A stretch of DNA of 64,000 nucleotides from Amoebophrya sp. A120 (taxonomy: Eukaryota > Protista > Dinoflagellata), in NCBI GenBank assembly GCA_905178155.1, contig CAJINV010000004.1:4876619-4940618 (forward strand). The letters run 5' to 3'. The notes under the pieces were generated by a model. The model did no database searches, was not told where the DNA came from, and saw only the letters and a program-made list of their open reading frames with translations. Shown here one piece after another: positions 29,924 to 63,733 of this stretch (positions within the stretch are counted from its first letter, which is position 1; each line of letters starts with the position of its first letter). A program made the translations under genes and the position numbers.

Positions 29924-32900
29924 TTACATTTGCTTCGCCGTCAACCACCTCTCCGCATCCAATGCTGCTTGTGCTCCACTTCCAGCGGAAGTAATAGCCT
30001 GACGGTAAACCGGGTCCGCGACGTCGCCCGCTGCGAAAAGCCCAGGGACAGTAGTTTGCGTTGCATAAATCCCAGCTGAAGTAGTAGATGTCTGCCCAGC
30101 GTGTTGAAGTCCACCTGCTGTTGACAAATACCCCTCGTGCTTCCCTTGAAATCCCACCTTGCCCTGCAGTACACCCGTGTTTGGCTGGTGGCCAATCGCG
30201 ACAAAAGCCGCATCGGCGTCGAGCAGTTTCCGGTTGCTTTCCGTACTTTGTGCCAACTCCTCCGAAAAAATCTTCGTACTTTCAATCTCCACGTTGCTCA
30301 GCGCGCCGCCAGTTAGCGAGAGAAACTTGACCACCCGGCTGTTCCAGTGAATTTCCACCTGGTTCTTCGCCACCGCGGCGTGCACCCGACCGCTCAAGGC
30401 CTTACTCGCTCGGTGGAAGGCGTCTCGACGGTGAATTATTTTCAAGGGGAAGGCGCAGACCCGGAGTAGAAAAAGCGCCTCCTCCATGGCAGTGTCGCCA
30501 CCGCCGATCACAACGCACTTTTTCCCGCGGAACAGAAACCCATCACAGGCAGCGCAGGAAGAAATCTGATTTTCATTTTGATTATTTTGTAATTGATATA
30601 TCCAGCTCCTGAACGATATTCATATCAGTCACATAGACCGGACCAATGTCATATGTTGCATATCCTGGTTACTTATATGTAAAAAATCAGTACTCCCTTC
30701 CCTCGCAGTTCGTACTCCCCCGGTACGTTGAGCCAGCGGCTAGCAGCCCCAGTGGCGAAGATGACGGAGGAGGCCGAGACCTTCAAGAGCGTGTGCGAGG
30801 TCGTGTTTTTTTCCGCCATGTCCTCATACCGAAACATGTCTGACGTCAGCGACGCGGCTTGGTCTACCGTGCCAGCAGCGCCGCTACCCTGCACCTCCAA
30901 TGCATTCGTCAGTTCCTTTTGCAGAGGTATGAAAGGAAAACGAAAAACCCAAGTTGGCACGACGGGATTGAATAATGCGTATTTCACGTAAAAAAAGGAA
31001 AATGTTTGGTTGTAAAACTCATATTTCATTTTTGGAGTTACCAGAACCAAAGTGCGGAAGTTTAACCCAGTGCAAGGCTAGTTTTTCGCTTTCCTGCATA
31101 GCAGAAACTTCGAAACTCGTACCACTTCCGGCACTTCCAGGTACAGTGATGTCGTTACAGTATCCGGTGAGAAACCGCACTCCAAACGCTTCCGCCTGGA
31201 GCCGCATGTCCGACACCATCGCGACACCCGTGGTCCGCTCCAGCGCCGGGTAGTTTTCCACGTCCACGCCTTTGCCCATGAGCTGCCCAACGTGGGTGAA
31301 CTTGGGCGCGACTACCAGCGGGCAAAGCCCCGCCCTCGCAGCGTAGAGCGCAGCGGCTAAACCCGCGGGTCCGGCCCCGATGATGAGCACTTGCTCGACG
31401 GCATTACCAGCTTGCGCTGATGAAGTAGAAACGCCTTGCAGCGAAGAAGATGTCGCTGTCCCCACTGCAATCGCGCTGTCCTGCAGCTTGTGGTCATTGC
31501 CGCACTTAAAAGGGTCGGAAGCTGACGTTGCAGAAGTAGATTCAGTCTGTGATACAACGTGTTCCGCCCGGTACAGCGCTCCTTTGAGGTCATACTGGTC
31601 CTGCTGTAGTTTCGTTGCGCGTGTGCGGATCTCGCGTCGCAGCGCCTTCAGCGTTTTGGCGAGGTCAGCGTCAGAAACTTTTCCCAGCTCCAAGGAGCCA
31701 GGAGAAGCACCCGTCACGGCTGCGGCGGCGGGCGTACCTTGTTTTCGAAATATTCCAGCACGATTTTTTGAAATAATTGGTAAGATGTATCTTTCTCCTC
31801 GCGGCCCTGAGCTTGCTATGATACGCTCCCCGCCAAACCAATGCGAAAAGTTGAAGTTCATGATCGTGCAAAGTCGCGCTTCGCTACAGTAAACTGTCTT
31901 CCCAAGAAGATGAATCCGCTTTATTTATACCTTTCCCTTCCTGCATGGACATTGCTTTTTGCACACCTGCACCTCCTGTAACTGGGGCCAAGTTGCCTAA
32001 TTTACACGCCTCTTCGACCATTCTCTCCAGCCCCGCCGTGTCTGCACCGTCGACCACCAAATGCGGAATGACGGCGTTACCAACCACCGCACGGAACGCC
32101 GGTAACCCTTGCACGCCGAACGCGTCTCCAACATCGGGCACGGTTTGTACGTCAATGTACAAAAACTGGATTTTTTCCGGGCCGTACTTCGTCCGGAACT
32201 TTTCCGCCAACAGCTCAAACACCGGCGCCATCAGTGTGCAGAAACCGCACATCTCACTCCCGAAATTCACGATGCTGACCATGCTGCCCCCGTTTTTCTG
32301 CACCAACTGCACAAAGTGATCGGAATTTGCCGCGTACACAATGTTCACAGACGAGGGGGGCTTGACGCCAGGAGCGGCGATCGAGCCTGCTCCAGGGCCT
32401 TGTTCTGCACCTTGTACTGCGGGCGGCCCGGCGTCCTCCCTCCCGTAGCACTGCTTTCTATGTTTTGCGTCAGGTAACGTGGCCCATTGCTGCGCGTCGA
32501 TCAGAAGGACCTCTAGAGATTGCGACGCGTGCCACTGCTCGTACGGCGGAACGGTGTTTTCCAAACATCCCGCTGCGACCCACAACTTCGCCCAACAGTC
32601 GGGCCCGACGTTGGTAGCGCGCGGCAACAGACCCGGGCAGGGGAGGTCAGCAGCGGATGCAGCTGGGCCGGCGGGTGAACCAAGGCCGGGGAAGAGCGCG
32701 CCGGAAGCAGGTGATGGTGGTGCGGCATTACCAGGGTTGACGTTGCCGCTTAGCTGTATTCCGTTTGGTGTATTGGGCGCTCCGGCGCCGAAAGACGATG
32801 GCAATGGCGGTAGGTTGTTCATCGCCAGAGAGGCATGGGCAGACCGAATGCAGCAGTGGGGTATTATTCCTGCTGCTGCAGTAGCCATGCAGCGAACCAC

Positions 32901-33122
32901 ACGGGACATTTTTGCCGATCGACGCTGGAGCCATTTTTTGTTGTCCTTGCAAGAAGAAGGCCCCCGTGAGGGAGAGCTTGACTCTCCCCAGCACTCGGTC
33001 ATGGTCGAATACGTTCTCGGTGGCAGGACCGAATGACTCAAAAATGGATGATGAACAGATTTGGGGCTGCTTTTCAACACGTTCAAGATTTTTCGGGAAT
33101 GCCTATCTATCGATCTACGCAA
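29924..33122 (-). CDS. trxB: Fusion protein: N-terminal extension + thioredoxin domain (CGFC) + low-MW NADPH thioredoxin reductase (CAAC)
   Basis: IIGAGPAGLAAALYAARAG, VENYP, IFATGA, ISSCAACDG, VIGGGDTAMEEA, HRRDAF, FVAIGHQPNT and FAAGDVADPVYRQAITSAGSG. GT-AG introns 31930..31738, ~31066..30916 and 30693..30566 keep the frame. Start codon uncertain. Confidence 0.88.
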
Positions 33123-33759
33123 AGGAAAACACTACCACGTAGGTATAAAAAAACAGGTTTTGAAAAAAGCAAGATTTAGGCTGATCTTCGTTCAAACACA
33201 GAGCCAGCACGCTTCTGTTCTGCTTCTGTCTGACTGCGACACGTTCCAGATACGCACACGGGACGAAAGACGGCCTTCTTACATACACTGACACGACAGG
33301 CCATCGCTTGCACCAGTAACATCTGTGGAACATGCAATGCATGTTCACCTTTTACAACACAAAAAAAAAAGAAGAAATTTTGACGCGGAATCGGAAAGAA
33401 CTGAACACGAACAACAAGTGTTAGGCCCAAACTGATTATACCGACGACCGGGTAAATCAGCCCCTTGCGATTACAAAGACGAGATCCACATTTGCATATA
33501 ATTCAGAGACATGGTAATTCTCTTGTTCTTCGTGGAAGTGGATCTTCACTATACTGGAATTTCCAAAATTTGGTCTTGCTCTCGGTCGCAGGTGAAGCCG
33601 CATTCTGCTAGAAGTACACTTTTAATTTTTTTTTTTGATTCATCCTCTTCATCATACAATTGCGATTTACAGTGAAACAAGGTTGGGTAGACCACAGCCG
33701 GCTCCTGCCTGAGGTCGCATATCACTCGGAATCCGCCACCAGGTAAAAATCTAGATCTA

Positions 33760-35796: not shown

Positions 35797-38700
35797 CTTC
35801 TGGAGCAGGAGCAGTCAAACTAGGGGTGGTGCGTCGCGGACTATCTTGACTTGTAGCTGCTGATAATCCGCAACTTTCCGATTAAGGACCTCGACCTTCC
35901 CTGCTGGTGAGCCACGCCGGGTGCATGCGCCCAAGCTGTGCTTTCGATGCTGCTCCGGCAAAGGCTGTTGCAACAAAGAACACCACAGTTCGTTCTTTAG
36001 TTGCTGCTGCTCTCTCGGTGCGTGTAGTTCTATGACTTTCAAGTTGCCTAAGTATGCGAAAGTGTTCTAAGTGGCGCGACCCCGCCTACTGCTTCGCAAT
36101 GAAATTACATCCTGCTTCTCCTGGTCCTGGTAAACACAAATTTGGAGTTGTGGTCCGTTCATCCTGCGGGGCGATCTGACTCAGTTGTGGTGGTACAACA
36201 TTTCCCGCTCGAATCGGATGCCGACAAAGGTTTCCTCTCATTCTCGCGAAAAACACGCCCGGACCCGTCTTCTTTTGCAGGAGATAATAACTGAAAGCAA
36301 CCCTAGGCACTCCACTCCCTCTCGCTCCTCATGACGCTGCGTGCCAAATGCACACTTGGCCGAACTCCTTACAGTGTCCTCGCCCTGCGCTTCTTGCGCT
36401 TTTTCGGCGCCATTAAAAGTAATCTTTTTTTCATTTTGGTCTCTAGCCAGCATCACAAGAAACAAACTTGCAATGTCCACAGAGGGGCCTCCCTCACGAT
36501 GCCGACGAGGCCGAATCTTTCATAACCCGCGCGGCCTTTCTCTCTGCGTGCGGCGCGCCACGGAGGCAGAAACAGGACATGACACACACCGAATGGCGCG
36601 CCAGTCAGGAAACAAGCCAGCCTTCTCCGGACGGGGCGACGCCAGGGTATGAATGCGGCTACGGGAGAAGCACCCCCATCACGGGCAGGACGAGGCCCAT
36701 TTGCGGCGCGGGTCAACGAATGCGCTGGCGCCGCGCGCACTTTCCACTGAAGGCCACGGCGCTATGTATCTACCAACCGGGCTCGCTGGCGGGGCGGCCG
36801 GGGCCCCGCCCGTTTCCTAGCGCCGCCCATCCAAGTGTCGGCCGCCCGGCCGCGCCGCGCTTGGGCGCTGGCTGCGCCGCCCGACCGGCGCGCGGGGGTC
36901 ACATTGTGGGCCGGCGCCACGGCGGCCTAGCTGGCGGGGTGTGGAGGCGGCATCAAACGCAGACCGGCCGGGCCAAAAGTGCCGCCCGTCGCTCGGGGCC
37001 AGCCGACGGCAAAAAGCCCTGTGCTTCGAATTACCGCCAAGCTGGCGCCCGCGCCCCATGCCATGCCGCGCCATGCTGTGCGCCCCACGCCGCCCCCTTC
37101 TCGTAGGTGGGTGGCCGCCGCCCGGCGGCTGCGCAACTCTTGCCAGTGGTTTTCTATGCCTCGCACTCGCTCCTGCCGGTGGTTGCGTACCTCGCGCACG
37201 CTCTGCCCCGCCGACTCGCTGCGGGTCCCTGGCGCAACCAATGACGCGCGCGACCAGACACTGTGCGCGGAGGGCGTCCCAGGTCATGGGGCGGATACGG
37301 ATTGCCATCACGCTAGGAGTTTATCTAAAATGAAAATCTATTATCTTGCTGATACGCCCGGATGGAGAAACAAATGCAAAGAAACGGGGCGCGATGCCTC
37401 GATAAACACCAACCCCGACGCTGGGCTCTCACTCACTGACCGGACCAACCGCTTCTCCGTTTCTCTCATTCGGTCCCCTCCGTCGGCTACTCAGAGTCAA
37501 TACTCAACATAAATAAACCGACCGAAAGGAACTCGTCTCCACAAAATAAGCCTCGCTATCCACATCACGCACAGCCCTGTTAGCCTCGGCTTGCAATCAT
37601 GCGCCTCTTTTTGGCTGTCCTCACTTTCTCTCAACCACGAGTCGGCTTCCAGACTTTCGAGAGCAAGGCGATCATGCCTACAAGGGCGTAGCATTTCCTT
37701 TTCAGCGCACCAGCTCATGCCTTGCTTCCTACCTTCAGAAGCCCTACTTCCGGCGCACCAACAAGGCGCCCAATCCCACTTGTAGTTTGGAGGGCAGCAG
37801 CCGCACGGCACCACCAGGGGCGGCGGGCTGCGCTTCAAAGGCGGCCATACCGCCAACCATCCACCCAGTGGTCCGCCGGGAGGCCCAGCAGGGCTGGGAC
37901 TGCTGCCGTGCGGCGCCGGCCGTCCGACCGAGGTTGCCCGAGGCCGAGACGGCCCCCTCGCTCGGCTCCCGCTGCGTGCGCAGGCCTCCCGGCGGCGAAA
38001 CACGGAGACCGCGCGCCCGCTCCTAGCTCCCCTGCGCTGCTTCCCGGCAAAGCGTTCCGCGGAGGCGTGCGCGCGACCGCAACACGCGGGGGCGTGGCCA
38101 TGATAATGCATGGCGGGGCCACTCTATTGGCCCAGCGGCGCTGCGAGACGGCCGGAGCCAGTGCGCGGCCCGGCCGGCAGGCCAATCCTAGGCCTAGCAC
38201 AGCACTAGGGGGGCGCGTCTCGGGCGGAAAGCCTTCGGGCGGAGCCCAGGGGCCCGCGCCCTTGCAGAAAAGGGAAGCAAGGCGGTCGAGGCGGCGGCGG
38301 GGCTGTCGCGCGGGTGGTTAATTTATAAAAACCGTATACGGGGGCGCCTTATAAAAACCGCATACCGATAACGGGGGCGCCTCTCGGGGTCGGCGCGAAT
38401 GCCGCAGGCCGCGCATTCTCACAAGGCGACGGCGCGGGTGTCCTTCTCGCCGTGGTCGTGCTCGTAGGGAATGCCGCGCGCGCCCAGCATAGAAGTTGAA
38501 GCGGTCGAGCCGCCGCCGGTACTGCACGGCTTTCCACTTTTGCGGCCAACACGTCGCTGCGCCGCCACGATGATACAAGGAGCAAGAAGAGGACCCATTG
38601 GTCGCTACCTCTCTGCCACGCCAGCAGTTTCGCTGGCATGGACACTTTTTGGATCGGTCGAAAGTATCAACGTCCCTAGTAGGCATAGGCATTCGTATTC

Positions 38701-39624
38701 ACGGAGAAGCAAATACTCCGAAGAGGACACGACCATGCGGAACAAACGTGAAACAGGTAAAGAGAAGCTGCGTTGTACGTAATAACCCATCAACAATTAA
38801 TATTGCGATTGCCGCAAGACTCTTGCGCGGCGCTTGCTCGTCTCTCCTCGCAATCGCGCTCAACAAGGATGAAACACTGTGTTTTGATGTTGTAGACTCA
38901 ATAATCAAAAACGCCCTCGTCACCATCGGGTGCGACCAATGGCCGTGGTTGTCAAATCTTGATGAGGCACCGATGCAAAAAAACAAAATCACGAGGAGGA
39001 TGCGCTACTTACCATAATTAGTGGTCATGGTGCACGCTGCTTTCCTCTCTTGCCTGCAACGAGGTGGCTTCTCGATCACAGTTTCATTGTTTGCTGCAAT
39101 AACAATAGCACGCGTGGTATGTGTATGACCACCAATAGACGAGGGCTCGTCTGCCGTCTAAGTGAAGGCGCACCCCACGACATCCATCCGCTGTGCAGTT
39201 GCAACGAAGCAATACCGTGCACAACCACTGGGCCGAGTTTCTCGCAGCCAACATTTCAACGGGCAGCTACATAATCTCAGCTTGAGCTTTTTTTTTGACT
39301 TCATATGTTTCATTTTTTTTTATGTGTTCATCCTTCCAGCGAGTGCGAGAGTTGATGAATATGATATCAAAGTGCTACGAAAATCAGTTGTCATAAATTG
39401 TAATTTGACCAGCATACTCCTAATCATACACGAAAGATCTTCTATCCTCACGAAGATCGTATAAAACCAATTGCAATTGCGTTTCTGTTCGTTTTTGGTT
39501 GCTACATCCATGAAAATAAAAATTGTATTCATTATCATTATTGCGATACGAGTATTGTACATGAGCCCCGTCTAGTACTCCAGCTGCTTTAAACGTATAC
39601 GAATTTATTGAATTCCTTCAACCT

Positions 39625-41819
39625 TCACTCCATCCACGTCCACTCCCCACTCAGTTCGAGCTGCAGCCCTTGCACCTCCGCTATGGGGTACTCAAATGTT
39701 ACATTCTCAACTGTTACGCAATCTGTAATACATGAATGGCAAAAGTGAAATGCAAATGGGGGACCTTGCGCGTCTTGCATGACAGATTTGGCAAAGAGTA
39801 TCAGCCTGCTTAGTCCTCTGGGAATTTGTCATGCTAGGCAGCTTGATCGCAATCGCATCGATTCTGATTGTGATTTTGCATGGCAAAGCATGCAACAGTT
39901 GAGAATGTAACAGTTGAGAACGCCATATCTGCGGAGATGCTCAGGGTTGCGGCGTGAAACGTGTCAAAGGTCCGCTGCACGTTGTTGTACTTCTTTTCGG
40001 TCTATGCATCACAAAAGTATCTTCGCACTTGTACTTCATGCATAACAAACCTGGTTCCCCAAATTAGTTTAGCATCACAAACTCCGTTTCAGTTTCTCTT
40101 ACTGGGGAGGTATTCTACCACGCAATTGCTACTAGCGCGATAGTACTTTCGCACAGGATACGATCAAGTCGTCGACAAAACTTCGCACTTCTTCGTCCGC
40201 GACTAGCCTGGCCTGCGACTCGTAAAAGTCCTCCAGGTATCAAGTGCAAACATGTGTAACTCTGAGTCTCAAAACCTCGAATGTGAAATTTGGGCATGAT
40301 GTTGGCTGGAACAACTGTAAGTGTGGCATGTGCAGCAGCAGCCAAGCATCATGACAAGCTTTCAGGCCAATTTCTGCTGCACACTGCGCATTTTTACAGC
40401 TTGCGTTTTCTTTTGCACGGCGAAGCACGCTCCTGCGCTTTTATCGTTGTTCATCAAGCAGTTCAGAATCAGACCTTGCAGAACTGCCAGACAACCAGCA
40501 TGTCAAGCTCCAGTTTCCCAGACTACCTGGCCATCATGTTTGCACTCCATACTTGATCCTCCGACCCGGGACTCGTTCCGTACGTGCCAACCCCGGCGAG
40601 GCCAAACAGATGGTGGCTATGCAATGCAAAAGTATCGTACTAGCATTGCATTACAAATTCCCGCAGCATTACAAATTGAGTTTGTAATGGTGATTTACGT
40701 TGAAAAAGATATTTGTAATGCATAAACGCAATTACTACGAGTGCGATACTTTTGCACAGGATAGTGGCTCTCCCCCGGCGAGTTGTTCAACATCCCACCG
40801 TACTGCAGCAGCGGCGACCCCTTCAGCAACGGTGATTGTTTCAGCAACTTCGTGGTGCCGCTGTTCGGATGGTTGCTGCGCTGCTGTTTCAGGTACTGTT
40901 GCGCTTTCACCGCCCGCGCCTGGATCCGTTCCGGGATGGAGGCGGTTTGAAATTCCTGGTTCGTGTTCAGCGCCGCCTTCCGCCGCAAGTCCTGGGACCG
41001 CTTGCGACTGGGGCTCGGGCTCTGGTGCTGACCACCGATCATGGTGCCAAGAAATTTCGCGGTCGGGCTCGGACTCTGCTCCGCCAGCTCTAGCTGCACG
41101 CCGCAGTAACTCGACTGGTCCCGCTCGACGAGACTCGGGTCTTGCGCCAACAAAATCTGCTCCGCCGGCGTCAAATGTTGATCTTGCTTCGGATTTTTAC
41201 CGTGCTTTCCCTTGCCCTTGTTCAATGCAGTTGTAGAACTAGAACTAGTACTCGCTCCACTGTGCAGCGCCGCCCTTGCAGCTGCTGACGAGCCGTGGTT
41301 CCGCGTGCTTGTCGGATTCGCGCCCGGCTTTTGGTTGTGCACAAAGGCGGACTCCAGATCGGACTGCATCTTCCGAAATTCCTTGTACATTTTCCCGAGG
41401 CTGCGGTCCGGATCGACTTGTCTGGACGAGCTGCTTTTTGATGTACCCTTCGCACTCTGCAGCAAAGAAAGCTTCAGCGACGCGTTCTGTGGCTGGTTAC
41501 CGACAGCACTCCCAGCCGCTGCAGAAGTAGAAGTTGCTCCTCGGGTCGCGAGGAAGTTGCTGGCAGCAGTACTCGAGGATGATGATTTTCCTCCATTTGT
41601 ACTAGACGAAGCGTTACTCAACCCCGTTGCGGAACGCAAAATCGACTTCGTTCCTGGTTTAATACCATCGGGCTGCTGCAACGTGGAGCTTTGTCCACCG
41701 CTTTCCTCACCGGACGTGACGGACTGCTCGTGGGCATGAATCCCCTCCCGGTTGTAGTTGAACAACTCTTGATGAAAGTTGCTGAGTTCCTGGTCAAATC
41801 CTGTGCAAAAGCATCGCAC
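39625..41819 (-). CDS. Hypothetical protein (3' part) interrupted by four TA-TIR elements
   Basis: Sequential removal of element + 5 nt gives one frame: ...PGESH-HLFGL...PGSED-LEDFYESQARL...DDLI-EKKYNNVQRTF...ISA-EVQGLQLEL. Confidence 0.65.
39682..39927. mobile_element. TA-TIR intron element family F (246 bp)
   Basis: TIR built of TTCTCAACTGTTACA units; TSD TCCGC/TCTGC; same ends as 59127-59383. Confidence 0.88.
40003..40160. mobile_element. TA-TIR intron element, diverged family B (158 bp)
   Basis: TATGCATCACAAAAGTAT ... TACTTTCGCACAGGATA; TSD CGGTC/CGATC; frame restored. Confidence 0.8.
40238..40551. mobile_element. TA-TIR intron element, family D-like (314 bp)
   Basis: TATCAAGTGCAAACATG vs rc TATGGAGTGCAAACATG; flanks CCAGG/CTTGA decayed, but the +5 rule restores the frame. 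Confidence 0.75.
40618..40763. mobile_element. TA-TIR intron element family B (146 bp)
   Basis: TSD GTGGC; TATGCAATGCAAAAGTATCGTACTAG ... CGAGTGCGATACTTTTGCACAGGATA; close relative of 61310-61459. Confidence 0.92.
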
Positions 41820-41972
41820 TAAGCGTGTAAAGGTAAACGCTGTTCCTGGATCGATGCCAGCTCTGCTGCTTTTTATTTTTTCACTAGCTTAATCTGCACC
41901 ACAAATTTCATAAGCAAAATTCCTCATCCGAGCATTATTCCAGTACACTTACACGATCTACCATGCAGCTTG

Positions 41973-44900
41973 TTAAGCTTTTGCCATGCATAGATCAGGT
42001 GACACGATGAACGAGGTCCCGCCGGTCCCGGTCTCGCTTATGGATGTGTCAGAGTTGAAATCGACAAATCGACAAAGTTGAAATGATTTGTCATGCTAAA
42101 CCGACCGAAACCACAACACAACCTGTAAGGGCACCTCACCGCAGATGGTTCGGCCACCAGGTCGTGGAGTCAGGCGGACCGAAGCCATCACCATCATCCT
42201 CGGGCACATGATCCCACTTACGCCAACTTTTCCTTACTTTCGCACACAGTCCTCACTTCGCCAACATGCGTTTAGCGTTCGCCAACGATCCTTACTTTGC
42301 GCCAACAAACCATACTTTTCGCCAACAAGTCCAACTTTTCGCCCACTGAGTACGTTTAACGTTCGCCAACGATCCTTACATTGCGCCAACGGATGCGTTT
42401 ATTGTTCGCCAACAAACCTTACTTTTCGCCAACAAACCAACTTATTGCCAACAGAGTACGTTTAACGTTCGCCAACGTACCAACTCATTGCGCTCACGGA
42501 CTGTGCAGGAGCCTACCAGGCAAACTGCTATAAGGAAGCAGCAGCCTGCAGCTGACTCCATGCATACGAAAATTTGCTATTCGGAACCCAACGGCCACCG
42601 CAGGCACAAATACAGTCTGCGATGAGGTTTAGAAAGGTCCGGTAAAATTAGGAGGTGCAGGTCCGGGTTAATGCACCTAACGCCGCGCAGTCAGGTGTCG
42701 CCAGAGAGTATAATCGCCGCAGATATGCTGGGGCTCGGGGCACCAGGAAAAGTTTTGACAGATGAGAGCGGGCCGAGAGAACTGGCAGCCTCAACGGCCT
42801 TTGACGCATTGTATCAGTGTCATGACCAACACAAAATCACAGCAGGACCGCAGAATACAAACGATGCAAAGGCCAGACGCCCCGAGGGCGATAAAGAGGA
42901 AAAGGCGGTCCCGCCAACAAAGGCAAAATATCAGGGACAGCCGAGGCGCTACTACCACCTGTCTCAGTTCATCTGTCAATTGGTAGTTACATAGTGGTGC
43001 CCGCGCGCGTGTAGCCGCAGGTGGCTGAAGGCTCTTGCGCGGATGAATGCAAGCACGAGGACGTCGTGCAGAGAGCAGGGCGCCGCTGAGGCCGGGACGT
43101 AATTGTAGAGAGAGATGCCGCTCTAAGCACAGCGCGTCGTTCTCAGCGGTCGGGTGCCGCGGGTTATCGCACTCGCCATAGCGCCGAGACGTTGACGACC
43201 ATCTGCTAAACGTCGATGGTGTGGTGATGAGACGGGGTTGGAGGCGTGGACAGTCCCCGACTGGCTACGGATCGAGGATGAGCACCATGACGACAGGGAC
43301 AGCGAGCCTCTGCGAGAGTTCGCAGAGATCGGATCGAGTCGAGTGAGTGGGCGCTCCGTCAGGACCGCTCTGTCACGAGATTGACAAAACCTGCGGCACG
43401 CCCCCCCCCGAAGGGCAGGGTTAAGAACCTTCGCCGTGCTTGCCCTGGATCGATCCGCCGGTAGCTGCAGACCCTAGTCCCGGATTATAGCGACGCCCAT
43501 CTTGGACTTTATCTCGTTTGTTTTTGCCCGGGGTGACCAAGCGCTCCGAAAACGAAAGATCGATAGCGAGATGCGAGTTTACGTATGAGCGTGCTGCACC
43601 GGATTGCCGTAGATCTGGATCGAGAAGGAGCTACCGAGTCAAGGACGGAGAGTCGAGCACTCCGAAAACGAGAAACCGAAAATGAGATACGAGCTTTTCT
43701 TTCACGTGAGCGCTCTGCGCAGGCTGTGCTAGTAGGTCAAGATCGAGAAGGACCCACCGCGTCAAGACCGAAGAGTCGAGCTTTCCGAAAAACAAACGAC
43801 CGACGTCGGGCACTCCGGAGACACAGGAGTGCCGTAGATCAGGTTCGAGAAAGAAGTACCGAGAAACCGCAAGCGAGGTCCGAGTTTGTCATGCATGTGA
43901 GCGCTCTGCGCTGAGCTTCCTGCGCGGGACTGCCGAGGATCAAAAACAGTTTGGAACTTCGAGAACTTTTTGAGTCAGAGTGCTAAACCCGCCGCGCTGT
44001 CCACGCGATTATGCCGAAGTCTCCTGTCGAAAAGCGCCAAAGTTACCGACTTCGCTCGGCGGGTTAAGGACAGCATTTGCCACACAGGTCGCAGCCATAC
44101 AGCGTCCTTGCATAAAATGCGATGCAAAAAGTGACTCCATTGCAAAGGACGCAAGGGAGGCAGATTATAGTCCTGGTAAGGGTCAAAAGTTGGACTGCTG
44201 ACTAGCATGACAGAAGGCAGCTCTTTTGCCCTAAACCGCATGACAGACTCGCTTCCAGGACCGGGAAAATTTGTCATGCACCGACTACAAACTGCAGGTC
44301 TAACTGGCATGGGCATCCATTTTATGCATGACAAATTATTTCAACTTTGTCGATTTCAAACCTGACACTCCCATATCGCTTTCCTCCAGCTGAATGCGCA
44401 CCGTCTTCTTTTTACTAGCGGAAGCGCCACCGTTTTGCTCCAGCAGCTGGATTGGTGACAATGGTTGGTCTTTAGAGGAAGTTGTTGGAGAGCCAGTTGA
44501 TTTTCTCGCCATCCAGCTATTGCGCTGCTGCTGCAGGATGGCCTGCAGAACCTGCTCCGCCTCCTCTTGGCGGCGTAGCGAGTCGGGACTCAACTCCGGA
44601 TCGCTGTCAATTGGGATCGCTGCTGTGCCGGCGGTATTGGTCGGATCTGGTGGAGGTTGGAGTTCAAATTTGTCACTTCTACTCCTCTTGTTCATTACAA
44701 ACATACGAAAGATGGCAATGCGATCTTTTATGATGCTGAAAACACTAAACGTAAATCTGAAGCTGCCCACCGACGACGTCCTAGGTGCTGTGCTCGATGA
44801 AAGAACAAACAATACCCGTGGCTCCTGGATAAAAACTCCCCTTCTGTTTCTCCCGTTCCCGTTCCAGGAGTCGCGTCTGCTCCAGGTTGCGCAGGTGCAT

Positions 44901-45266
44901 CGTCAGCTGCAATTTGATTTCGTGCAGGAAGCATTCCAGCTCCCGGTCCCGGTCGTACCACCAGCTGTTAAGCTTCTCCAGCAGCGAGTTCAGCTTGGTC
45001 ACGGGGTTTATTATCGTTGTCGATGGTGTTGAGGAAGTGACGGAGGATCCTGCCAAGCTTCCAGCTTTGAAATACGGGACGAGCCAATGCGGAAGTTGCG
45101 AGGACTTGTCCTTGGTCCGGCAGATCTTGTCGTAGTTGCGGTACAGCCAGTTCCACCCCATGCGGACCTGCTTCTCACTGTGCTTGTAGAGGACAAATTG
45201 GTACACAAAGTTCGGTAGAACCTGAAATTTTAGACTCAGGAGAAGTTCTCTACACCTAAAAACCAT
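41973..45266 (-). CDS. Hypothetical protein (5' part), spanning the 2.3-kb element; may be the same gene as 39625-41819
   Basis: ORFs 45266-44781 and 44812-44376. Element removal gives IQLEES-ETGTGGTSFIVSP. Confidence 0.45.
42220..42483. repeat. CGCCAAC-based tandem repeat inside the long element
   Basis: More than 10 CGCCAAC cores; higher-order unit GTTTA(A/G)CGTTCGCCAACG at ~42270, ~42354 and ~42460. Confidence 0.85.
43540..43960. repeat. Degenerate direct repeats inside the long element
   Basis: Recurring GCCGTAGATC, GATCGAGAAGGA, CGAGAAACCG, GTGAGCGCTCTGCGC and AGTCGAGC blocks. Confidence 0.6.
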
Positions 45267-45588
45267 TATACAAATAAACGTTTCCGGGTTTTGTTCAATT
45301 TTACAAATCAGCGCCCTAATCTACGAGCGAAATCAAATAAACAATCAACCGAGTCAGGCGATGCCTTTTCAGACGAACAAAACCTCAGCGATGCCTCGGA
45401 ATACCCGCCGAAGTATCGCAGATTGATTTTGCAGGAGCTCGCTGGCCTTTCAACAGACAAAACTTGTCTGGCAAGAAATCGGGCAGCTTCTTCGGTTCAT
45501 GGGGCTCGCTTTTTTGTAAAATTCAGACTTAGGATGACAATTTTGGATCCTCTCAGACCCAGACACTTTCGCCTTGATGCTGGTACAC

Positions 45589-45649
45589 GAGAGCCGGAGT
45601 CTAGCTCCTTTTCGAATTCAATTCGCAAAGGAGCTAGACTCCGACTCTC
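45589..45649. repeat. Near-perfect hairpin (30-bp arms, 1-nt loop)
   Basis: GAGAGCCGGAGTCTAGCTCCTTTTCGAATT-C-AATTCGCAAAGGAGCTAGACTCCGACTCTC. Confidence 0.85.
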
Positions 45650-45699
45650 CCAGGTTTTTGGGATTTTCGTGTCATCACATTTCGGCCAAAATGACCGCT

Positions 45700-45890
45700 T
45701 CCGGGTTTGCGCCGGATTTGTCCCGGGTTTGCAAATATTTTGTAAATATTTTGCAAACATTTTGCTATTTCCTGACAGCTAGCGCCGACCTGTAATGGTC
45801 GATATCTTAGCGCCGAAAAAGCACCCGAAAAAGTCGGGCGCTTTGCAAAATATTTGCAAAATATTTTGCAAATCCGAAGCAAACCCGGGA
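45700..45890. repeat. Inverted-repeat block of TTTGCAAAATA-type units
   Basis: TCCCGGGTTTGCAAATATTTTGTAAATATTTTGCAAA ... TTTGCAAAATATTTGCAAAATATTTTGCAAATCCGAAGCAAACCCGGGA. Confidence 0.7.
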
Positions 45891-46204
45891 GCGATCTTGC
45901 GTTCGCTTTCTCGCTCCTCTGTAGCATTCACGCAAAGAATTGGCTTCTATAAATCTGAGCTGTGGAAAGCGCGCAGCACCATCGTGAAACATTTTCAACG
46001 ATGTGCGTTCCACGGGCGCACTGGCACTACGCAGTCGACCTTACTAGTGGTTTGCTGTGGAGGTAGATTCTAAATGAGGACGAGATAGAGCAGAGAAGGG
46101 CGGTCGCTGATGGAGACCCCACCTAACACAAGGGGGATGAAAAGAGGCAGGAAAAGTAGGCCCCCATGGGAAAAAGGTTCCCCCATGCAGTGCAGGAAGG
46201 GCAC

Positions 46205-47458
46205 CTATACTAAGGGGTGCTGAAAAGCATACCTCCTAAGGGCTGTTTTGTGGTGCTTGTGTTTTCTTTCACTTTGTAAAACTGCACAAAACCCGGAAAT
46301 ACAAAGATGCATAATGGTTTTTATAAACGTCCTGAAAACACGACGCAAGAACTTCAAGTTCTTGCGTCGTGTTCTTCTTGGCCATTTATTTTGTACTTGC
46401 TTCATTATCGCCAACAGCATGCATCTTTCTCGTTCTCCTTCTCCATGTAGAACAGTGGATCTTCTAGCTATCAAAAACAATAACAAATTAAATTCTTCTA
46501 CCTCTTCAGAGTGCAGCGTGAATTTCCTTCCCATCGGCAGGTCCTTGATTTGTTCTTGGAGCAACGCTTTTTTGATTTTCTCCGGTAAGTAGGAGAAGAA
46601 GCAGAGCTTGTCCAAAAAATGCGCACAGTGTCGTGGAATCAAATGGTCGTCTGCGCTTTTCGTGGAGGAAGCCATGGGGGACGCGAGGGGAATGGGTTCC
46701 GTACTAGCTAAACCATCTTCATTGCCATCAGCGAGACTGAGATCATCCGGACCTGTAGCACCATCTTCTGTTGCCGCTGCAGCTCTTGATGCTGTGGGAG
46801 CACAAGCAGGGTTCTTGTTCCGTTCCTCCGGTACAACGACCTCAACATCGTCGTTGGCGGATCCGAGCAGTTGTGCCATGATGTCCGCGTCGGAGAGAAA
46901 GTAGAAGTTGCTCTGACTCCGCCGTGCCACTTGGTCGGTGCCGGCGCCTGGGGACTCCTGGTCGTCGACAACTTCTTCAGCGGTATTCTTGCTGATTTTT
47001 CCGTCATCCTCTGCGCCAGCGTCGCCCTGTTCTTGTTGTATACCAACATGACCTCCCGTAGAAGAAGTTATGCCGGTCACTATTGATGCGTTCTCTTTCT
47101 CCTCGTCCGCCGCTGTCAAAGCGTGCATGGCGTCCACGCGCTCTGTTATTCGGTCGAACACCGCACGGATTTTTGGCACCGGATCCCCCTGAAAACCCGT
47201 GGAGGACGCGGACGATTTGCTAGGGCCGCTTGCTCCTGCATTTTTAGCACCATTTCTCTCCTTCTGCTGGTGCTCAAAGCCGGTCGACGCTGTCGTGGGC
47301 GACGTTGCAGCTGGAGCTCCGCCACCACGTGCTGCAACGGCGAGTGCACTGTCGGGGGTCTCGCCTGCTGTGGCGGCTGCTTCAGTCTTCGTGCCTATTT
47401 CGCCCTCGGCACGCTGGAACCGCTCCTCTTCATCCTCAAGCTTGAGCAGGAAATCCAT
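46205..47458 (-). CDS. Hypothetical protein
   Basis: 417-aa ORF; acidic disordered N-half and helical C-half. Confidence 0.5.
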   Translation of the reverse strand: MDFLLKLEDEEERFQRAEGEIGTKTEAAATAGETPDSALAVAARGGGAPAATSPTTASTGFEHQQKERNGAKNAGASGPSKSSASSTGFQGDPVPKIRAVFDRITERVDAMHALTAADEEKENASIVTGITSSTGGHVGIQQEQGDAGAEDDGKISKNTAEEVVDDQESPGAGTDQVARRSQSNFYFLSDADIMAQLLGSANDDVEVVVPEERNKNPACAPTASRAAAATEDGATGPDDLSLADGNEDGLASTEPIPLASPMASSTKSADDHLIPRHCAHFLDKLCFFSYLPEKIKKALLQEQIKDLPMGRKFTLHSEEVEEFNLLLFLIARRSTVLHGEGERERCMLLAIMKQVQNKWPRRTRRKNLKFLRRVFRTFIKTIMHLCISGFCAVLQSERKHKHHKTALRRYAFQHPLV

Positions 47459-56575: not shown

Positions 56576-59500
56576 TTACTTCTGTACTATAGTCTCCTCC
56601 ACTTCTTGTTGTGCCTCCACCTTCCTGTTTTTCGGTTTTATTGAGAGGAAAAATCCCCCCTCCCCATATCGAAAAGGTATGTTTGCAAAAATTTGTGTTG
56701 CGGATTTGAGGTCACAAATCACATTTGTCTTGCAAGAAGGCAAACCCAAAGAATCCGCTGCCTTAAGGAGGCGATTTGTAATGCTGTTTCACCTACATGG
56801 CAGGCCTCTCTTATGCCAAGAGCCTACAACAAAACACCCCTACGCAGGCTGAGGCTTTGCCTGTAGTGCCTCTGTGCAATACAAAGCTGATTTGTGGTCA
56901 CAAATCAGCATCACAAATTTCCGTTCTGATATGGGGAGGGGGGATTTTTCATTCTGATAGGTTTTGCGGCCACAACATAGCGAAACCCCTGGTCGCCGAG
57001 GAACACCGTGTGGAACACGGCCGCTGTTCCCGGTACGACGAACATCAGGACTGTAAATACCTGCCCTATCCAAGTGAAGAACATACAACTCCCCGCCCTC
57101 GTGGTCGTCCCTCTCGTTCTTGGTTTGTCATGATACAAAATGCGGCCTAATATTCTTTACGCATTGCGTTGCCTCTTGGCACTGTTTGCATGACAAGATC
57201 TAGCAGGAGCAGCTCGGACTACGACTACAGCAGGTACTACACTCCTGTCCAGTAGATTTCTTCTCGTCATGGTGCAAAGCCTGTATTTTTGCAGCTGTCG
57301 CGTACTGTACTAGTACAACTTAGTGTTATATTTTATTTTTAATTGCTGTTCATACAATAGTACAAATGAAGGGGAACATCAAGGGGAGCTGTAATTTTTG
57401 CACTTTCATATGCCCCCAGACGGCGACATTGAGCAGAGTCGAGAGGGAAAGCACGACGGTCGAGAGGCATGTCAGTTTGCGAAATGCGCACGCGGTGAAA
57501 GTAGGACTTTCATTTTTGAGGCCGCTGGTGTTGTGCTCCACTTCTTCTTTGTGTTCTCGCAACTGGTTTTTTTCGTCCTGCTGTTCCGCCTCCGAAGCGG
57601 AAGAAGCGCTGGTGGAAGGAAGCATCGTGCTCCGATTGTCGTAGAAGTCCTTGGCCGCCGCGAGCTGCTCTCCGACGTACGGCGCAGCGCCGGCCGGAGA
57701 TGCAGGCGGCAGCGCGAGGAGGACAGGAGGCCCTGCGAGTACCGGGTTGTGGTGCCGATCCAGTACGATCCGCGTCTCCATGTGGTCGACGAACTCGAGC
57801 TCAACACCGCCGCAGCAGAACAAATAGCCCCATGGATGACCGGAGAAACTAGCACACGATGACGATGAGTGTTCTACTTCATCTTCCCCAGCATCAGCTC
57901 GCTCTGTTCCGCCTCGCTGCTCTACTGCTGTACTACGTCGATCTTGTCCCATCATGTTCTTGCCGCTCGATTTATTACTTTCCACATTGTTGTTCTTCCC
58001 GGTGGTTGACGCGCTGGTGCCGACGTTATCAGCGACTTCTTTCGTCTGTTGTAGTTCTTCTCCCGCCGCCGATTTTAAAATTCCCTGGTGCAGCTGCTTT
58101 TGTTCTAGTTGCCAGACAGGAAAGGCTTTGCCCTCTTTCGTATTTTTCAACGCGTACACGAGCAAGGACACGTAGCACATGGTGATGAGGACAAAGGTGA
58201 AACCCAACGCAAGCGAAGTAATCGTACCAAGTGCAAAAGTATCGTACTCGTAGTAATTGCTATCGTGCATGACAAATATCTCTTTTTAGGTGAAATAGCA
58301 CTACGAGTTGCATTTTTGTTCTTGAAAAAATTTGTGATGCAATTTATACTAGTACGATACTTTTGCAATGCATAAAGCGGCAACACTTGCAACAACAGCG
58401 GCAGACCGCAAGTGTGAAGAAACGCGACGGCGCCGGGAACCATGCCCATCAGAATGCACAGGCCGAGGAGCATGTCCATAACCAGCCTGTCCCACGCGAT
58501 TCGAATCAGGAGCAGGTGGGTGAGGACAGAAGTCTTGAACAGTTGCCAGCTGCTGGTCGTCGATGAAACAACACCCGGTGGTCGCACGGTGGGCGACTTT
58601 CTGGACGTCGAGGACAGCAACATGCGAAGTTGCCACCCCGCTAATCGTAGCTGGTTCAGGACCAAAAAGCTCACTTCCCCGATGCCCTGCAGGTGCCGCC
58701 GCGATTGCGTGTACCGTGCCGCTACGTTCGCAAAGTACGCACTCATCCGGGAGGACGAAGTAGATCCTTCGCTCTCCACGATAAAACTAGCAAACGGTAG
58801 GTAAATCGCGACGACTTTGAAGGCCGGCAGGGGAAACCGCAACATTGTGGGATCGTTATTGTAGCAGAGAGCTGCAGATGTTGAGGAGGAAGAAGCTACA
58901 ACTCCTGCGGAAGCTGCAACAGGAGCACGACGTCCACCTGGCGCAGGGGCACCAACAACTCCTCCGCAATGCTGTATGAGGGCGGAGGATTCATCTTGTT
59001 CATCAGGGTTGTTCACCAGATGATGATCCACCTGATGTTGGTGCTCATGATCTTCAGGATCGCCAGGAGCTTCTACTTCGAGCGACGTAGACGTATGTAG
59101 CCCCTGGAGGTTCCACAGTTCGCGGGTATGGCACTCTCAAACGTTACATTCTCAGCTGTTTTTACACGATTAGACGTGCAAAATGACCATGAGCCACCAG
59201 ACGAAGATCAAGCTGCTTCGCGTGACAAATTATCAAAGGGCCAAACAGTATCTAAATCCTCTGTGCCAAATTTATATATGATGCAAGCTCATTTCTTGCA
59301 AGCTTGCCCCTTTCATCCGTACTGCTCCTTTAGCGTCACAAATCCACGTAACAGTTGAGAATGTAACAATTGAGAACGCCATAGCGGGTGAGCATGCCTT
59401 GCAGAAAAGTGTGGAGGTCCTCGGAGATGACGTCGGGAGCAAAGCCGCCCATCCGCTCGACAAGTCGATGCGTCGCGGTGTAGGATATGAAAGCCTCACC

Positions 59501-62500
59501 AGGTTGGAAATCCTCAAAGTGGAAATAATTTGTAATGCAAAAAACGACTCCAGGTAAAGCGGCATTTGTAGTCCGCGCATGACAAATTTCCCGGGCACTT
59601 CTTAAAGCATGTCTGTCATGCAGGTTAAGGCAAGGGGGTGCCCTTCTGTCGTGCTAAGCAGCACTCCAATTCTTCACCCCTGGCAGGACAATAGTCGGCC
59701 TCCGTTGCGTCCTCTGCAATACAGTCTTTTTTGCGTCGCATTTCATGCATCACAAATCATTTCCACTTTGAGGATTTCCATTGTTCTGAGGCTTTCATAT
59801 AGGAGCTCATCAGCGGTCGAGCGGAGGGGGAGACCAGACCGAGCTTGTAGCGCTCGTACATCCTATCACAGGAAAAAGTGTTAACGTTAACGGTTTTCAC
59901 AGATTGCAGTCATGCATCACAAATGTAGCCCAATATGCATGCTATGCATGACAAATTCTGACACGTCTTGTGATGCATTTCAGCATCACAAATTCCGTTA
60001 ACGTTAACACTTTTTGTTGTGATACATCCAAGCGCCTGCCGCGCCGACCTTGCTCAAGCCGGGGACGCGGTCCCAGTTGCGCAGCGGCTCCTGCACCGCT
60101 TGCCAAAACCTCCACGCACGGTCTGAGGCCGGCTCCTGCAGTGCCTGAAACGTCACGCAGGGAAAGTACTGCCGATGAAACAGCGTGTCAGCGTCGCAGT
60201 TGGTAATGAAAGTGCGGTCCGGGTGCCACCGCAGTAAGCTACAAGAACTTGTTGGAGAAGTTTGTTCGTTTTCAGCTGCACCAGGACCGGATGATGGTGC
60301 TCCATCGCTTCCATACGTGGAGGAGACGCTGTTCGTTATTTTTGTTCTAATTGTATTACTCCAAGTTGTTCGATGCCAATGTTGATTAAATTTCTCTCTC
60401 TCTTTATTTCCGCTGCAGCAACTTTTGTTCAGTACAAGCTAATCATTGTTCTCAAGAACATCAACAAGCAGTAGGGAACGCCTGCTTGTCGTGCAGCTTT
60501 TTGTTAGAAATAGATACTCGATCATGAAGCTATCCACGCTTTCATCGCGCATAAAATAAAATCATCGAAGCATCTAACTATTATCATTTCATTTCAAACA
60601 GATTCCAATTAGTACCTGCTGCCATTGTTCAAGTTCATCATGGTCCTCGTCTTCCCAAACTGCCCCTTCTCCTCACGACCGGGCAGCAGCTTTTCACATT
60701 GCGTTGGATCGTTCAGAAAACGCTGCAGTTCTAGCCACGCTGCCTGCAATATGACAGTGCACAACTCCCCCTTCCCCCCATTTGTGATGCAAAGCCTTGG
60801 TCCGGTCCCATGTGGCACTGTTTGCATGACAACTTTCGGAAGCCCAAACAGTACTACATTCGGCTCGTGAAGAACTTGTCATGCATAGGATCCAAATGCG
60901 TTGATGTTTGTATTGCTGCTCATGCCATGCAAGTGAGGGGGAGGGGGACTTGTGCACTCTCATATGCACATTTGAACTCTTGCCGGCCACCTCGCCGGGA
61001 AATTGGTTCTCTTTGTGGTAGCTGAGAATAATCTTCGCGAACTGGTGGCCGTGTCTGCCTTTTAGCCTTTCCGCTTTTTCGACTGCAGCCGGGCCTTCGC
61101 GCTCCTCCATGGCCAGCACGAGCACCATGGGGAGAGCTACAACTGGATGGTGTAGTGCTTCGATTTGGTGGTCATCGTCGCATGGGAGCTGCTGGCTTTC
61201 GTTTTCATCTTGTTGTTCCGGATTTTTTTCTTGTAGTTTCTTGCTCATCGTCCCGGCGGTGAAGTGATTTTTGTCCAGGTCCTCGCTCATCTGCTGACTC
61301 TTGATGTCGTATGCAATGCAAAAGCATCGTACTAGTATGAATTGCATTACAAATTGGCTTCGCATTACAAATTGAGTTTGTAATGCGGATTTGCCCTAAC
61401 AAAAAGATTTGTAATGCATAAATGCCATTAGTACGAGTACGATACTTTTGCAGTTCATATGTCGTGCTTCAACACCAAGTTGTTAATCGTGTCGGATACT
61501 AGGTCGCAGTCTTCCTTGTAACAGGGGATGATCACCGCATGCAGCGTATGCAATACAAATTTCCCGTACATGTACAAGATGCATCACAAATTTCACGAAT
61601 TTTGAGCGTCAAACTTGTCATGCGAAACTAGAAGCGAAGCCAAGTTTTGTCATGCGGAGACCGCATTTGATGTACGTGTACGGGAAATTTACTGTGGATA
61701 CAGCAGTCCGTCTTGCAATGCCTTCCTCTCTTTGCTGGAGTGCACAAATTCTCCCAGTTTGCGTTCCCATATGACACCCTCAGAATGGAAATCCTCAAAG
61801 CGGAAATAATTTGTGATGCATGAAATGCGACACCAAGAAGACCGTATTGCAGAGAACGCAATGGAGGCCGACTATTGTGCTTCTATGGGTTCAGAATTGG
61901 ACTGCTGATTAGCATGAGAGAAGGGCACCCCTTTGCCTAACTAGCACGACACCAGACACGTTCTGAATGACCGGGAAATTTGTCATGCGCCGCTTAGAAA
62001 TGGCGCTTCAACTGGAGTCGTTTTTTTGCATTACAAATTATTTCGATTTCCACTTTGAGGATTTCCATTCTGAGGCTGTCATATCCCAGTCGACTTTCAG
62101 CCACGCGTCCATCTTATCAAATGCAATTATGTCTGTGTCTGGAAGGTTGCAACTTGTGATGCTATGTTTCGACTCTAAAAAGATTTGTATTGCATGACCA
62201 GCAAGGGGAGCCCAGTTTTTGCTACGTGGGGAGGGCATTTGTCATGCGGAGCAGGCATCAGGAAGCCTTCTAAAAATCTGTGATGCTATGTCCCGCATTC
62301 CAGACCTCATGGGTCATGGCAACCCTGCGTGACAAACTTGTATTCTTCCAGACCCAGACATATTTGCATTTGATACATCTTCCACAAGCACATCGCCGCG
62401 CCAACAGAAATATCAAATGCAAAAATGTCTGGGTCTGGAAGATTCGGGGAGTTTGTCATGCACAACTGTACATGACCCAAAATGCCTGTGATGCATGCTG

Positions 62501-63733
62501 TAGCATCACAGTTCTCGCAAAGCCTTGGTAATGCCTATTCTGCATGAGAAATGCCCTCTCCGAGTGGCAAAAATTCAAGCAGCTTTTGCTGCTCATGCAA
62601 TACAGATTTTTCTATCGTCTACAGGTAGCATCACAAATCCCATTCTTTCCAGACCCAGACATTTTTGCAATCCATACGTGATCGTCGAAAGCATAAAGAC
62701 CACAAAGAACTGACAGGGTAAAATGGCATACTCGAACCACAACCGGGGAAACGCGTCGAATTGGTAGGTGAGGAGGTGTATCAAGTGTAAAAATGTTTGG
62801 GTCTGGAAGAGTGCAGACTTGTCATGCACATTTTCCATGACCCATGAGGTCTGGAGTGCGGGACCTAGCACGACACATTCTGTGAGGCCTCTACCATGCC
62901 TATCCTGCATGAGAAACCGCCTCCCAACTTGGTCAAAAGTGAACAGCTTTTGGCACTCATGCAACACAGATTTTTGCATGCTTCAGATTTACCATGACAA
63001 GTTGCCACCTTCCAGACCCAGACATTTTTGCAATGCATAAGGTAGATGCCGAGGTAGGTCAACACGAAGATCAAATACACGCAGAGCGGAACGGTCCGGG
63101 TATCAAATGCAAATGTGTCTGGGTCTGGAAACTTGTGATGCTGGGTGGCGTATCATGAGGAGGCAACAAGTGCTGGTGCAGCATGACAAGTTTCAGAGCT
63201 TCCAGGTGTTGCCTATTCAGCATGACAAACCACGTTTCTGCATGGCAGAAAAGTGAGGCTCTTGGGTAACGTGCATGACAGATTTAAGAGTCATGCCAGA
63301 CAAGCATGACAAACATGCATTCTGCCAGACCCAGACATTTTTGCAGTTGATACCGGGCAAGCAATGCCAACGTCGTTCCGGAGGAGACGGATTGGGGAGA
63401 GAGAAGTTCTTGTCCTTGATGTAGCTGTGGTTGGTGACCAACTGCATGATGTTGAGCGTGGTCATAGTACTCAACATGTTGCTTGAGCTTGCTCTCCTGC
63501 ACCACGCCTGCAGTTGATGTACTACTTTGTGGGGGCGTGGACGTCGCATAGAAGTCCGCCTTCGACGTTGTGCCCTGGCTGCGACGCCGGAGGTCCACCT
63601 TCGACGTTGTGCCCTGTTTCATCTTCTGTTGGGATGGTCGTGAAGAACTTTGCAGCTGCCAGAAGTGCGTCGACGTATTTTCAATGCGACTGCGAGGACG
63701 AGCGGTAGGAACTACGGCAGGCACAGGGCGCAA
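56576..63733 (-). CDS. Membrane glycosyltransferase family 2 protein, split by 14 TA-TIR elements and one GT-AG intron
   Basis: Reconstructed frame contains HAVIIPCYKED, LAMEERE, PGEVAGKSSN, TNCDADT (DxD), VISEDLH (catalytic ED), ARYTQSRRH (QxxRW-like), TM helices at both ends and YVVAAKP near the C-terminus. Start uncertain. Confidence 0.85.
56639..56959. mobile_element. TA-TIR intron element (321 bp)
   Basis: TSD GGTTT; TIR core GAAAAATCCCCCCTCCCCATATC; restores VAAKP-KNRKVE. Confidence 0.92.
57067..57410. mobile_element. TA-TIR intron element, family H-like (344 bp)
   Basis: TSD TGCCC; shares TGGCACTGTTTGCATGACAA with 60750-60964; restores AVWGQ-VFTVLM. Confidence 0.85.
58225..58374. mobile_element. 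TA-TIR intron element family B, reverse orientation (150 bp)
   Basis: TGCAAAAGTATCGTACT TIR; TSD AATCG/AAGCG; restores QVLP(L/I)-TSLALG. Confidence 0.9.
59127..59383. mobile_element. TA-TIR intron element family F (257 bp)
   Basis: TSD GCGGG; restores GMLTR-ELWNLQ. Confidence 0.92.
59486..59799. mobile_element. TA-TIR intron element family C (314 bp), reverse orientation
   Basis: TSD TAGGA; TIR core TGGAAATCCTCAAAGTGGAAAT; restores LMSSY-TATHRL. Confidence 0.93.
59864..60024. mobile_element. TA-TIR intron element family G (161 bp)
   Basis: TSD CATCC; TIR TATCACAxxAAAAAGTGTTAACGTTAACGG; restores GAWM-YERYK. Confidence 0.93.
60750..60964. mobile_element. TA-TIR intron element family H (215 bp)
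   Basis: TSD TGCAA/TGCAC; TIR TATGAxAGTGCACAAxTCCCCCT; restores GKSSNVQ-AAWLEL. Confidence 0.92.
61310..61459. mobile_element. TA-TIR intron element family B (150 bp)
   Basis: TSD TGTCG; restores VLKHD-IKSQQ. Confidence 0.93.
61547..61700. mobile_element. TA-TIR intron element family A (154 bp)
   Basis: TSD CAGCG/CAGCA; homolog of 34239-34389; restores DGLL-HAVIIPCYKE. Confidence 0.92.
61770..62083. mobile_element. TA-TIR intron element family C (314 bp)
   Basis: TSD TCCCA; restores KVDWE-RKLGEF. Confidence 0.93.
62115..62375. mobile_element. TA-TIR intron element family D (261 bp)
   Basis: TSD CATCT; TIR TATCAAATGCAAxTATGTCTGxGTCTGGAAG; restores CLWKM-DAWLK. Confidence 0.93.
62411..62676. 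mobile_element. TA-TIR intron element family D (266 bp), TSD decayed
   Basis: Clear family D TIRs; flanks AGAAA/CGTGA; the +5 rule restores MLSTI(S/T)VGAAM. Confidence 0.88.
62779..63039. mobile_element. TA-TIR intron element family D (261 bp), opposite orientation to 62115-62375
   Basis: TSD AGGTG/AGGTA; restores LGIYL-LTYQF. Confidence 0.92.
63101..63352. mobile_element. TA-TIR intron element family D (252 bp)
   Basis: TSD CCGGG; restores LLAR-TVPLCV. Confidence 0.93.

Follow-up and report, generated by a model that had tools for sequence, protein, structure and literature searches.

The 2.3-kb element at positions 42039-44375 (minus strand) of the window, the 64-kb stretch of Amoebophrya sp. 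A120 DNA analysed here, is a composite. It consists of a family C introner, located in an exon of the gene for protein P0001, and of a nested non-coding insert of 2,012 bp (42097-44108, sense strand putatively minus). The interior is very probably an independent insert, neither the core of a parent element nor a solo LTR, since it splits the left terminal inverted repeat (TIR) of the introner, since the same insert is found within a different introner in L001, a contig of a close relative, and since TIR letters of a second family occur in contigs of a DNA run (X1). The favoured reading, to which we give a probability of roughly 0.6, is that of a truncated, non-autonomous and target-specific non-LTR retroposon spread by reverse transcription, on account of its fixed end, its variable far end and the variable length of its target duplications.

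The carrier introner

The carrier is an ordinary family C introner, a known kind, with inverted repeats beginning with TAT and a boundary direct repeat of the 3-5 nt class. The latter is TCGCT, a 5-bp target duplication present at 42034-42038 on the left and at 44376-44380 on the right, as the preliminary description had claimed. The TIRs seen there are also recovered, as arms 42039-42068/44346-44375 and 42066-42096/44326-44356. The outer 58 bp of the left TIR (42039-42096) include an additional local 8-bp duplication, and its inner continuation (44112-44125) is separated from them by the insert. The rest of the introner occupies 44112-44375, with the right TIR at 44313-44375.

Without its interior the element measures 322 bp (314 bp without the local 8-bp duplication). 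It is then 74% and 69% identical to two empty 314-bp copies, located at 59486-59799 (duplication TAGGA) and 61770-62083 (duplication TCCCA), respectively. Three short copies had been described as the left TIR joined directly to the right part of the long element; this holds for these two, and the copy at 18178-18527 is a diverged, family C-like sequence of 350 bp that is 60% identical to the interior-less element and lacks a target duplication. As a repeated family, the carrier has two close copies in the window and a summed depth of 99,777, vs 42 for single-copy sequence.

Boundaries and segments of the nested insert

The element had been proposed to be either the parent of the short introners or an introner with a nested insertion, and it is the second branch that is borne out. 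The interior splits the left TIR right after the motif TTTGTCATGC (42087-42096, plus strand). In the right TIR arm, this motif is followed by ATAAAATG, and the same letters resume beyond the insert at 44112; without the interior, the TIRs match over 72 bases instead of 62. Of the breakpoints earlier placed at TGC(A)TAAA, only the letters TGC are duplicated (42094-42096 and 44109-44111), the true breakpoints being 42096/42097 and 44111/44112. The two strings once thought to bound the interior, TGTAAGG (42124) and CCTTGCA (44106-44112), both exist. Position 42124 does not delimit the insert: the sequence shared with L001 starts 27 bases earlier, and C stands at this position in other copies.

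The two repeat arrays reported for the extra ~2 kb are present at about 42247-42500 and 43536-43911. From the fixed end outward, the insert comprises its best conserved and most repeated part (42097-42220, minus strand, the putative 3' end), the first array, with a 20-bp unit and a 107-bp higher period (shorter in L001), a segment at 42724-42993 starting with TATG and ending with CATA that is missing from L001, where 14 other letters stand, the second array, with a 116-123-bp period, within which a second, near-identical insert copy stops at ~43595, and a far-end segment (43965-44082) recurring at low copy (~85% identity) in other contexts. One exact target motif lies within the insert itself, inside the second array (43885-43894). 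At 43981-43994, the sequence TGCTAAACCCGCCG resembles the fixed-end junction (12/14) and belongs to the low-copy segment, along with an 18-bp inverted repeat; it may be a further short element lying in tandem.

Forms of the insert of several lengths are found: 2,012 bp, 1,322 bp, ~1.5 kb and ~150 bp. Its target duplications also differ, 3 bp in the window and 18 bp in L001, for both full copies (2/2), which are the two complete junction pairs read. A precise fixed end at the motif is seen in the window, in L001 (partly by construction), at a loose end of an X1 contig, and in record 10 of run X3, a small number of junctions. It is likely that the insert prefers a motif common to introners. An exact copy of the first 14 bases of the insert stands at 37514-37527, devoid of the target motif or of further likeness; the expected count of such a match is 0.04 (one mismatch allowed), and it is either fortuitous or the terminus of a related element.

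The target motif is common to several introner families. Its 25 exact copies in the 64-kb window, about one per 2.6 kb, compare with 0.25 expected, and with one mismatch 80 copies are counted, often clustered within several unrelated repeat families. Going by this distribution, TTTGTCATGC may serve these families as a common signal in mobilisation or splicing. Clustered copies of nested or palindromic repeats at 62105-63356, and also at 22544-22751 and 23966-24324, are rich in it.

A second copy in a close relative

L001 is the sole match in the metagenome collection. Its insert is 90% identical to that of the window over 42086-42343, 75% over 42317-42726 and 74% over 42986-43267. It sits at the same motif, but in a different introner family with its own introner duplication, GAGGG. 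Without the insert, the L001 introner measures 236 bp and is 73% like the window copies at 39682 and 59127, while its 48% identity to family C is at shuffle level (mean 45%, maximum 48%). The pattern used for the search held eight bases of the motif, so that adjacency to the motif is there by construction in L001; the other introner family, the position in the left arm and the 18-bp duplication flanking the insert are independent of the pattern. The insert starts 51 bases from the introner end in L001, vs 58 in the window.

Identity between the two inserts climbs toward the fixed end, from 72-86% to 96-100% (42118-42217), and their far parts do not align. In both full copies (2/2) the orientation of the insert is that of the host gene. 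The host gene in L001 (L001:1448-5820), the first exon of which is interrupted by the element, is a near-identical orthologue of the A120 protein P0002, with two substitutions. As its host gene differs from P0002 at these two residues, L001 stems from a very close relative and not from the same genome. P0002 reads the empty-site sequence of the L001 locus exactly, and P0003 agrees.

Copy depth along the insert

Reading 42076-44124 in X1 with the motif disregarded yields 71 records, the single-copy flanks having a depth of ~42. In 69-bp bins from the fixed end, the summed depth is 4274, 2320, 763, 292, 451, 254, 521 and 112; further out it is ~81 to 43593 and 42 to 43938, followed by 69, 148 and 50. 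The last value covers 44077-44124, and no matching staircase starts from the right end. Summed depth is not equal to copy number, and older copies also drop out inward; read loosely, these values correspond to ~100-150 copies of the first bases and to 1-2 of the far part. The staircase is in part not due to divergence, since near-identical contigs (0, 0, 3 and 0 differences) have falling depths of 147, 108, 81 and 42. Such near-identical copies stop at staggered places, one of them near 43595, where record 11 of X3 also stops. A single contig variant reaches a depth of 453. The segment 43965-44082 recurs ~3.5-fold, a bump that plain truncation does not predict. At 43189 and 43384 the window reads A, the DNA run C and the RNA-like run X3 T, possibly reflecting two copies (C and T) together with an unpolished assembly base.

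The loose ends of X1 contigs fall into 29 rows, and none of the six listed holds more than two contigs; true TIR ends in unique flanks give rows of 132-173 contigs, though these families are far larger. Judging by the small size of the listed rows, most fixed ends of the insert appear to be located within repeats. The TIR of the second introner family is read in the row closest to the fixed end, with the loose end TGTTACATG. In X1, for which eight of 76 pieces are listed, two contigs have TIR letters of this second family ahead of 42085, and one X1 contig passes from 42243 through 16 letters to the family's inner TIR motif.

Coding capacity, folding and homology

A recognisable transposase had been reported as absent, and this stands: the 11 frames within or overlapping the interior yield one weak Pfam match, below cutoff, to a DUF. 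Reverse transcriptase and endonuclease were also sought within the insert by Pfam, HMMER, ESM Atlas and substitution counts, and none was found. Pfam returned nothing above cutoff for the insert frames, HMMER only three repeat-rich artefacts, and ESM Atlas, for an L001 frame, weak scores of 0.75-0.76. Synonymous and non-synonymous counts look neutral in all six frames. A resemblance of one frame to the end of CRE-type reverse transcriptases is not supported by substitution counts, HMMER or Pfam. The insert end is G/T-rich and loosely repetitive and has no poly(A) tail.

Neither insert end has an unusual fold (z from -0.01 to 0.57), and a ribozyme or pseudoknot considered at either end was dropped for lack of a fold signal. 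A group II intron and an LTR followed by a primer site (42124-42998) were both dropped in view of the L001 junctions. Rfam gave one chance-level match, outside the element, and no tRNA was found; a viral scan gave two matches of 18 bases without further likeness, and two scans of prokaryote genomes gave none. Shorter relatives of the host exon were sought and none was found. Four insert motifs were not found in 13 of the 14 supplementary files of PMC12130899, a result of little weight as no element sequences were noticed in these files.

Proposed mode of spread and alternative explanations

Target-primed reverse transcription has the geometry seen here, with one end placed precisely at a fixed target position, the other end variable, and duplications on the target side. 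Under the favoured retroposon reading, an endonuclease would nick just past TTTGTCATGC, and the freed DNA end would serve as primer on the element RNA, which an enzyme supplied from elsewhere would copy starting at its fixed end. Synthesis would halt at a variable point, and a second nick would fall 3-18 bases off. The paired ends of the carrier would still join the exons, so that the full 2,342 bases would be missing from most transcripts and the initial reading frame restored. Short copies of the insert may, in addition, have multiplied as introner passengers. The counter-evidence consists of the missing coding, poly(A) and fold signals, the unrelated far parts of the inserts, the bump at 43965-44082, and the 14-mer at 37514. 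With regard to classification, the insert works like a target-specific non-LTR retroposon, but as no reverse transcriptase or other coding signal was found in it, it is not filed in a named clade.

The same polarity, the fixed start at the motif, the variable far ends and the duplications are also predicted by DNA-templated break repair, which needs no reverse transcriptase: a break in a TIR would expose an end in TTTGTCATGC, which would invade an insert-bearing introner, copy a variable length of it and rejoin, the short versions then being carried along as introners transpose. The motif is highly abundant, and the X1 variant with a depth of 453 is what passenger spread would lead one to expect. 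With a motif every 2.6 kb, however, the interiors of ordinary introners should be copied far more often; furthermore, the near-invariant fixed end suggests a recognised signal, and near-identical copies end at staggered places. Break repair is the main rival, though an unlikely one. The fixed end and the unrelated far parts would likewise be explained by one-ended, IS91- or Helitron-like rolling-circle transposition, with a fixed origin, variable termination, a specific target and captured far parts. Rolling-circle transposition leaves no duplication, a trait of IS91 elements, yet the L001 copy has one of 18 bp, and the terminal hairpin signal is absent, making this mode improbable. Helitrons, too, leave no target duplication (PMC12130899); supplementary file 8 of the same paper labels one of the A120 introner families IS91-like.

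The two readings offered in the preliminary description fare worse. According to the first, the 2.3-kb form was once autonomous and has decayed, and the 314-bp copies derive from it by internal deletion at TGC(A)TAAA. The depth falling inward from the left end and the microhomology at both breakpoints would suit it, as would an X1 contig joining 42094 to 44111, although any empty copy would read the same. Against it, the interior is seen with no family C ends around it, within another introner family (L001, X1), an outcome that the preliminary description had itself named as refuting the parent model; it also splits the TIR, and there is no staircase from the right side and no coding signal. 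Hence, such parentage is very improbable. A solo LTR hidden within the intron has slighter prospects still. TGTAAGG at 42124 and CCTTGCA at 44106-44112 do exist, and the stretch TGTAA..TTACA followed by TGG (42124-42998) looks LTR- and primer-site-like by eye. But the shared boundary is 42097 and not 42124, TG..CA is not what stands at the true ends, far ends differ between copies, the duplications measure 3 and 18 bp instead of the 4-6 bp of an LTR, the TTACA segment is missing in L001, and copies of constant length flanking gag-pol, as an LTR would have, were not seen.

Host gene and probable removal from the transcript

The exon downstream of the element matches P0001, a 1004-residue protein of Amoebophrya sp. 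A120, at 100%. The P0001 gene has eight exons on the minus strand, from 47458 to 39837. Around the element, the upstream exon (44376-44647) is followed by a micro-exon at 41993-42033 (41994-42047 in the annotated model), by a second, non-canonical intron (41792-41992), and by the downstream exon (40764-41791), all on the minus strand. The flanking exons had been said to rejoin in frame for about 19 codons before a stop; read straight on, the frame indeed runs for ~20 codons. The stop lies in the second intron and is removed with it, so the rejoined frame remains open. Precise removal of the element and one duplication gives an open frame, and retention a stop 14 codons into the element. The annotated P0001 model skips 44374-42048, with an AT..AC boundary and 15 extra nucleotides kept.

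Of 11 runs, four were used, and none on record as RNA is listed as containing the sequence; the raw-read RNA run X9 gave 0 reads, which is not informative. The canonical intron 44647-44815 is missing from contigs of runs X3 and X6, which therefore behave as RNA, a status that is presumed. In X6, record 22 stops precisely at 44376, and in record 16 position 41791 is followed by 47 unplaced nucleotides, which fit 41993-42039. As contigs break where paths fork, and judging from their lengths, the ends at 44376 and on the 42039 side would mark the points where precise removal and retention part; with the annotated boundary, these points would be 44374 and 42047. In X6, exon contigs have depths of 33-61 and insert contigs of 5-16. 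Insert sequence occurs in contigs of both runs and could be retained intron, and the 76-nt tail of record 9 of X3 is equally compatible with a retained TIR and with splicing. The 15 of 149 joints listed, all from the DNA run, include none that spans the element. In the minimum-energy fold of the 2.4-kb RNA, computed without a shuffle control, the TIRs pair end to end over 45 bases. The suggestion that long-range end pairing suffices for removal is therefore plausible and indirectly supported by the gene model, the contig ends and the fold, the joint itself not being seen. Taken together, the element is probably removed from a good share of the transcripts, with some retention.

At its end, the annotated P0001 gene enters an introner of the second family (39682-39927) and stops at 39837, with last residues derived from the TIR; this end is probably a missed intron. 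The 1.28-kb P0001 intron at 45219-46498 contains nested palindromes, and RNA-like contigs leave 45275-46400 uncovered. Elsewhere in the window, a thioredoxin/glutathione reductase-like gene with thioredoxin and pyridine nucleotide-disulphide oxidoreductase domains lies at 29927-33131 on the minus strand, and 36000-39000 is GC-rich (0.60-0.62) without a Pfam match.

Significance

The removal of non-canonical introns and the mobiliser of introners in Amoebophrya are given as open questions in PMC7789003. Insert copies of ~100 bp to 2 kb within ordinary introners represent a natural length series for testing removal driven by end pairing, and the 10-base motif found across introner families may be bound by the missing mobiliser or by a splicing factor. 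The odds are about even that an active retroposon family homes on this motif in unrelated introner families and is free of cost in exons of essential genes, being spliced out at any length by the paired ends of the carrier. If so, it would amount to a hyperparasite living on introns, and nature would have supplied the proof that the ends alone define these non-canonical introns. If reverse transcription is its mode of spread, it would be a retroelement with an intron-forming transposon as safe haven. What is new here is a mobile element apparently aimed at intron-forming transposons, and long introner copies should not be taken as parents by default.

Comparison with known systems

The carrier resembles the introners described in A120 (Farhat 2021, PMC7789003; Gozashti 2025, PMC12130899), with which it shares TAT-starting inverted repeats, short direct repeats, non-canonical boundaries, and membership of families of ~300 bp without a transposase. 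The composite differs from those in PMC7789003 by its foreign insert and by its 2.3 kb, beyond the 40-1000-bp range of introns analysed. In the relevant sections of that paper, no transposase is reported as found in A120, and non-LTR retrotransposons are reported in the genome. PMC12130899 classifies introner families, among them the Ginger-like family 38, and, in supplementary file 8, lists reverse transcriptase domain matches (PF00078) under TIR family 9. These matches are a lead to nested coding retroelements, with no sequence link to the insert. Family 38 is like family C in its 5-bp duplication, TA termini and ~50-bp TIRs, and unlike it in its 808 bp and integrase-like homology, a comparison made by description only; it is a better lead to the mobiliser of introners than the 2.3-kb element.

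No report of an element targeting introners was found in the literature searched, which took in few subscription papers, and the available portions of PMC7789003, PMC12130899, PMC12005148 and bioRxiv 10.1101/2020.10.14.339549 hold nothing on targeted nesting in introners. Target-specific non-LTR elements have precise 3' and varied 5' boundaries (PMC4640811). Those with a restriction-like endonuclease (RLE), such as Utopia and R2, share with the insert the precise 3' boundary, the multicopy target, the varied 5' ends and duplications of up to 20 bp (PMC4640811). In contrast to them, the insert has no reverse transcriptase or RLE found, its target is not an RNA gene, and its duplication length varies within the family. 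The closest precedent is Tx1L, a non-LTR retrotransposon of Xenopus inserted in Tx1D DNA transposons (PMC6719617), where a TIR transposon likewise serves as a safe target. Unlike Tx1L, the insert is known without a coding element, its target is a short motif of several families, and its carriers are introns, probably spliced, lying in exons.
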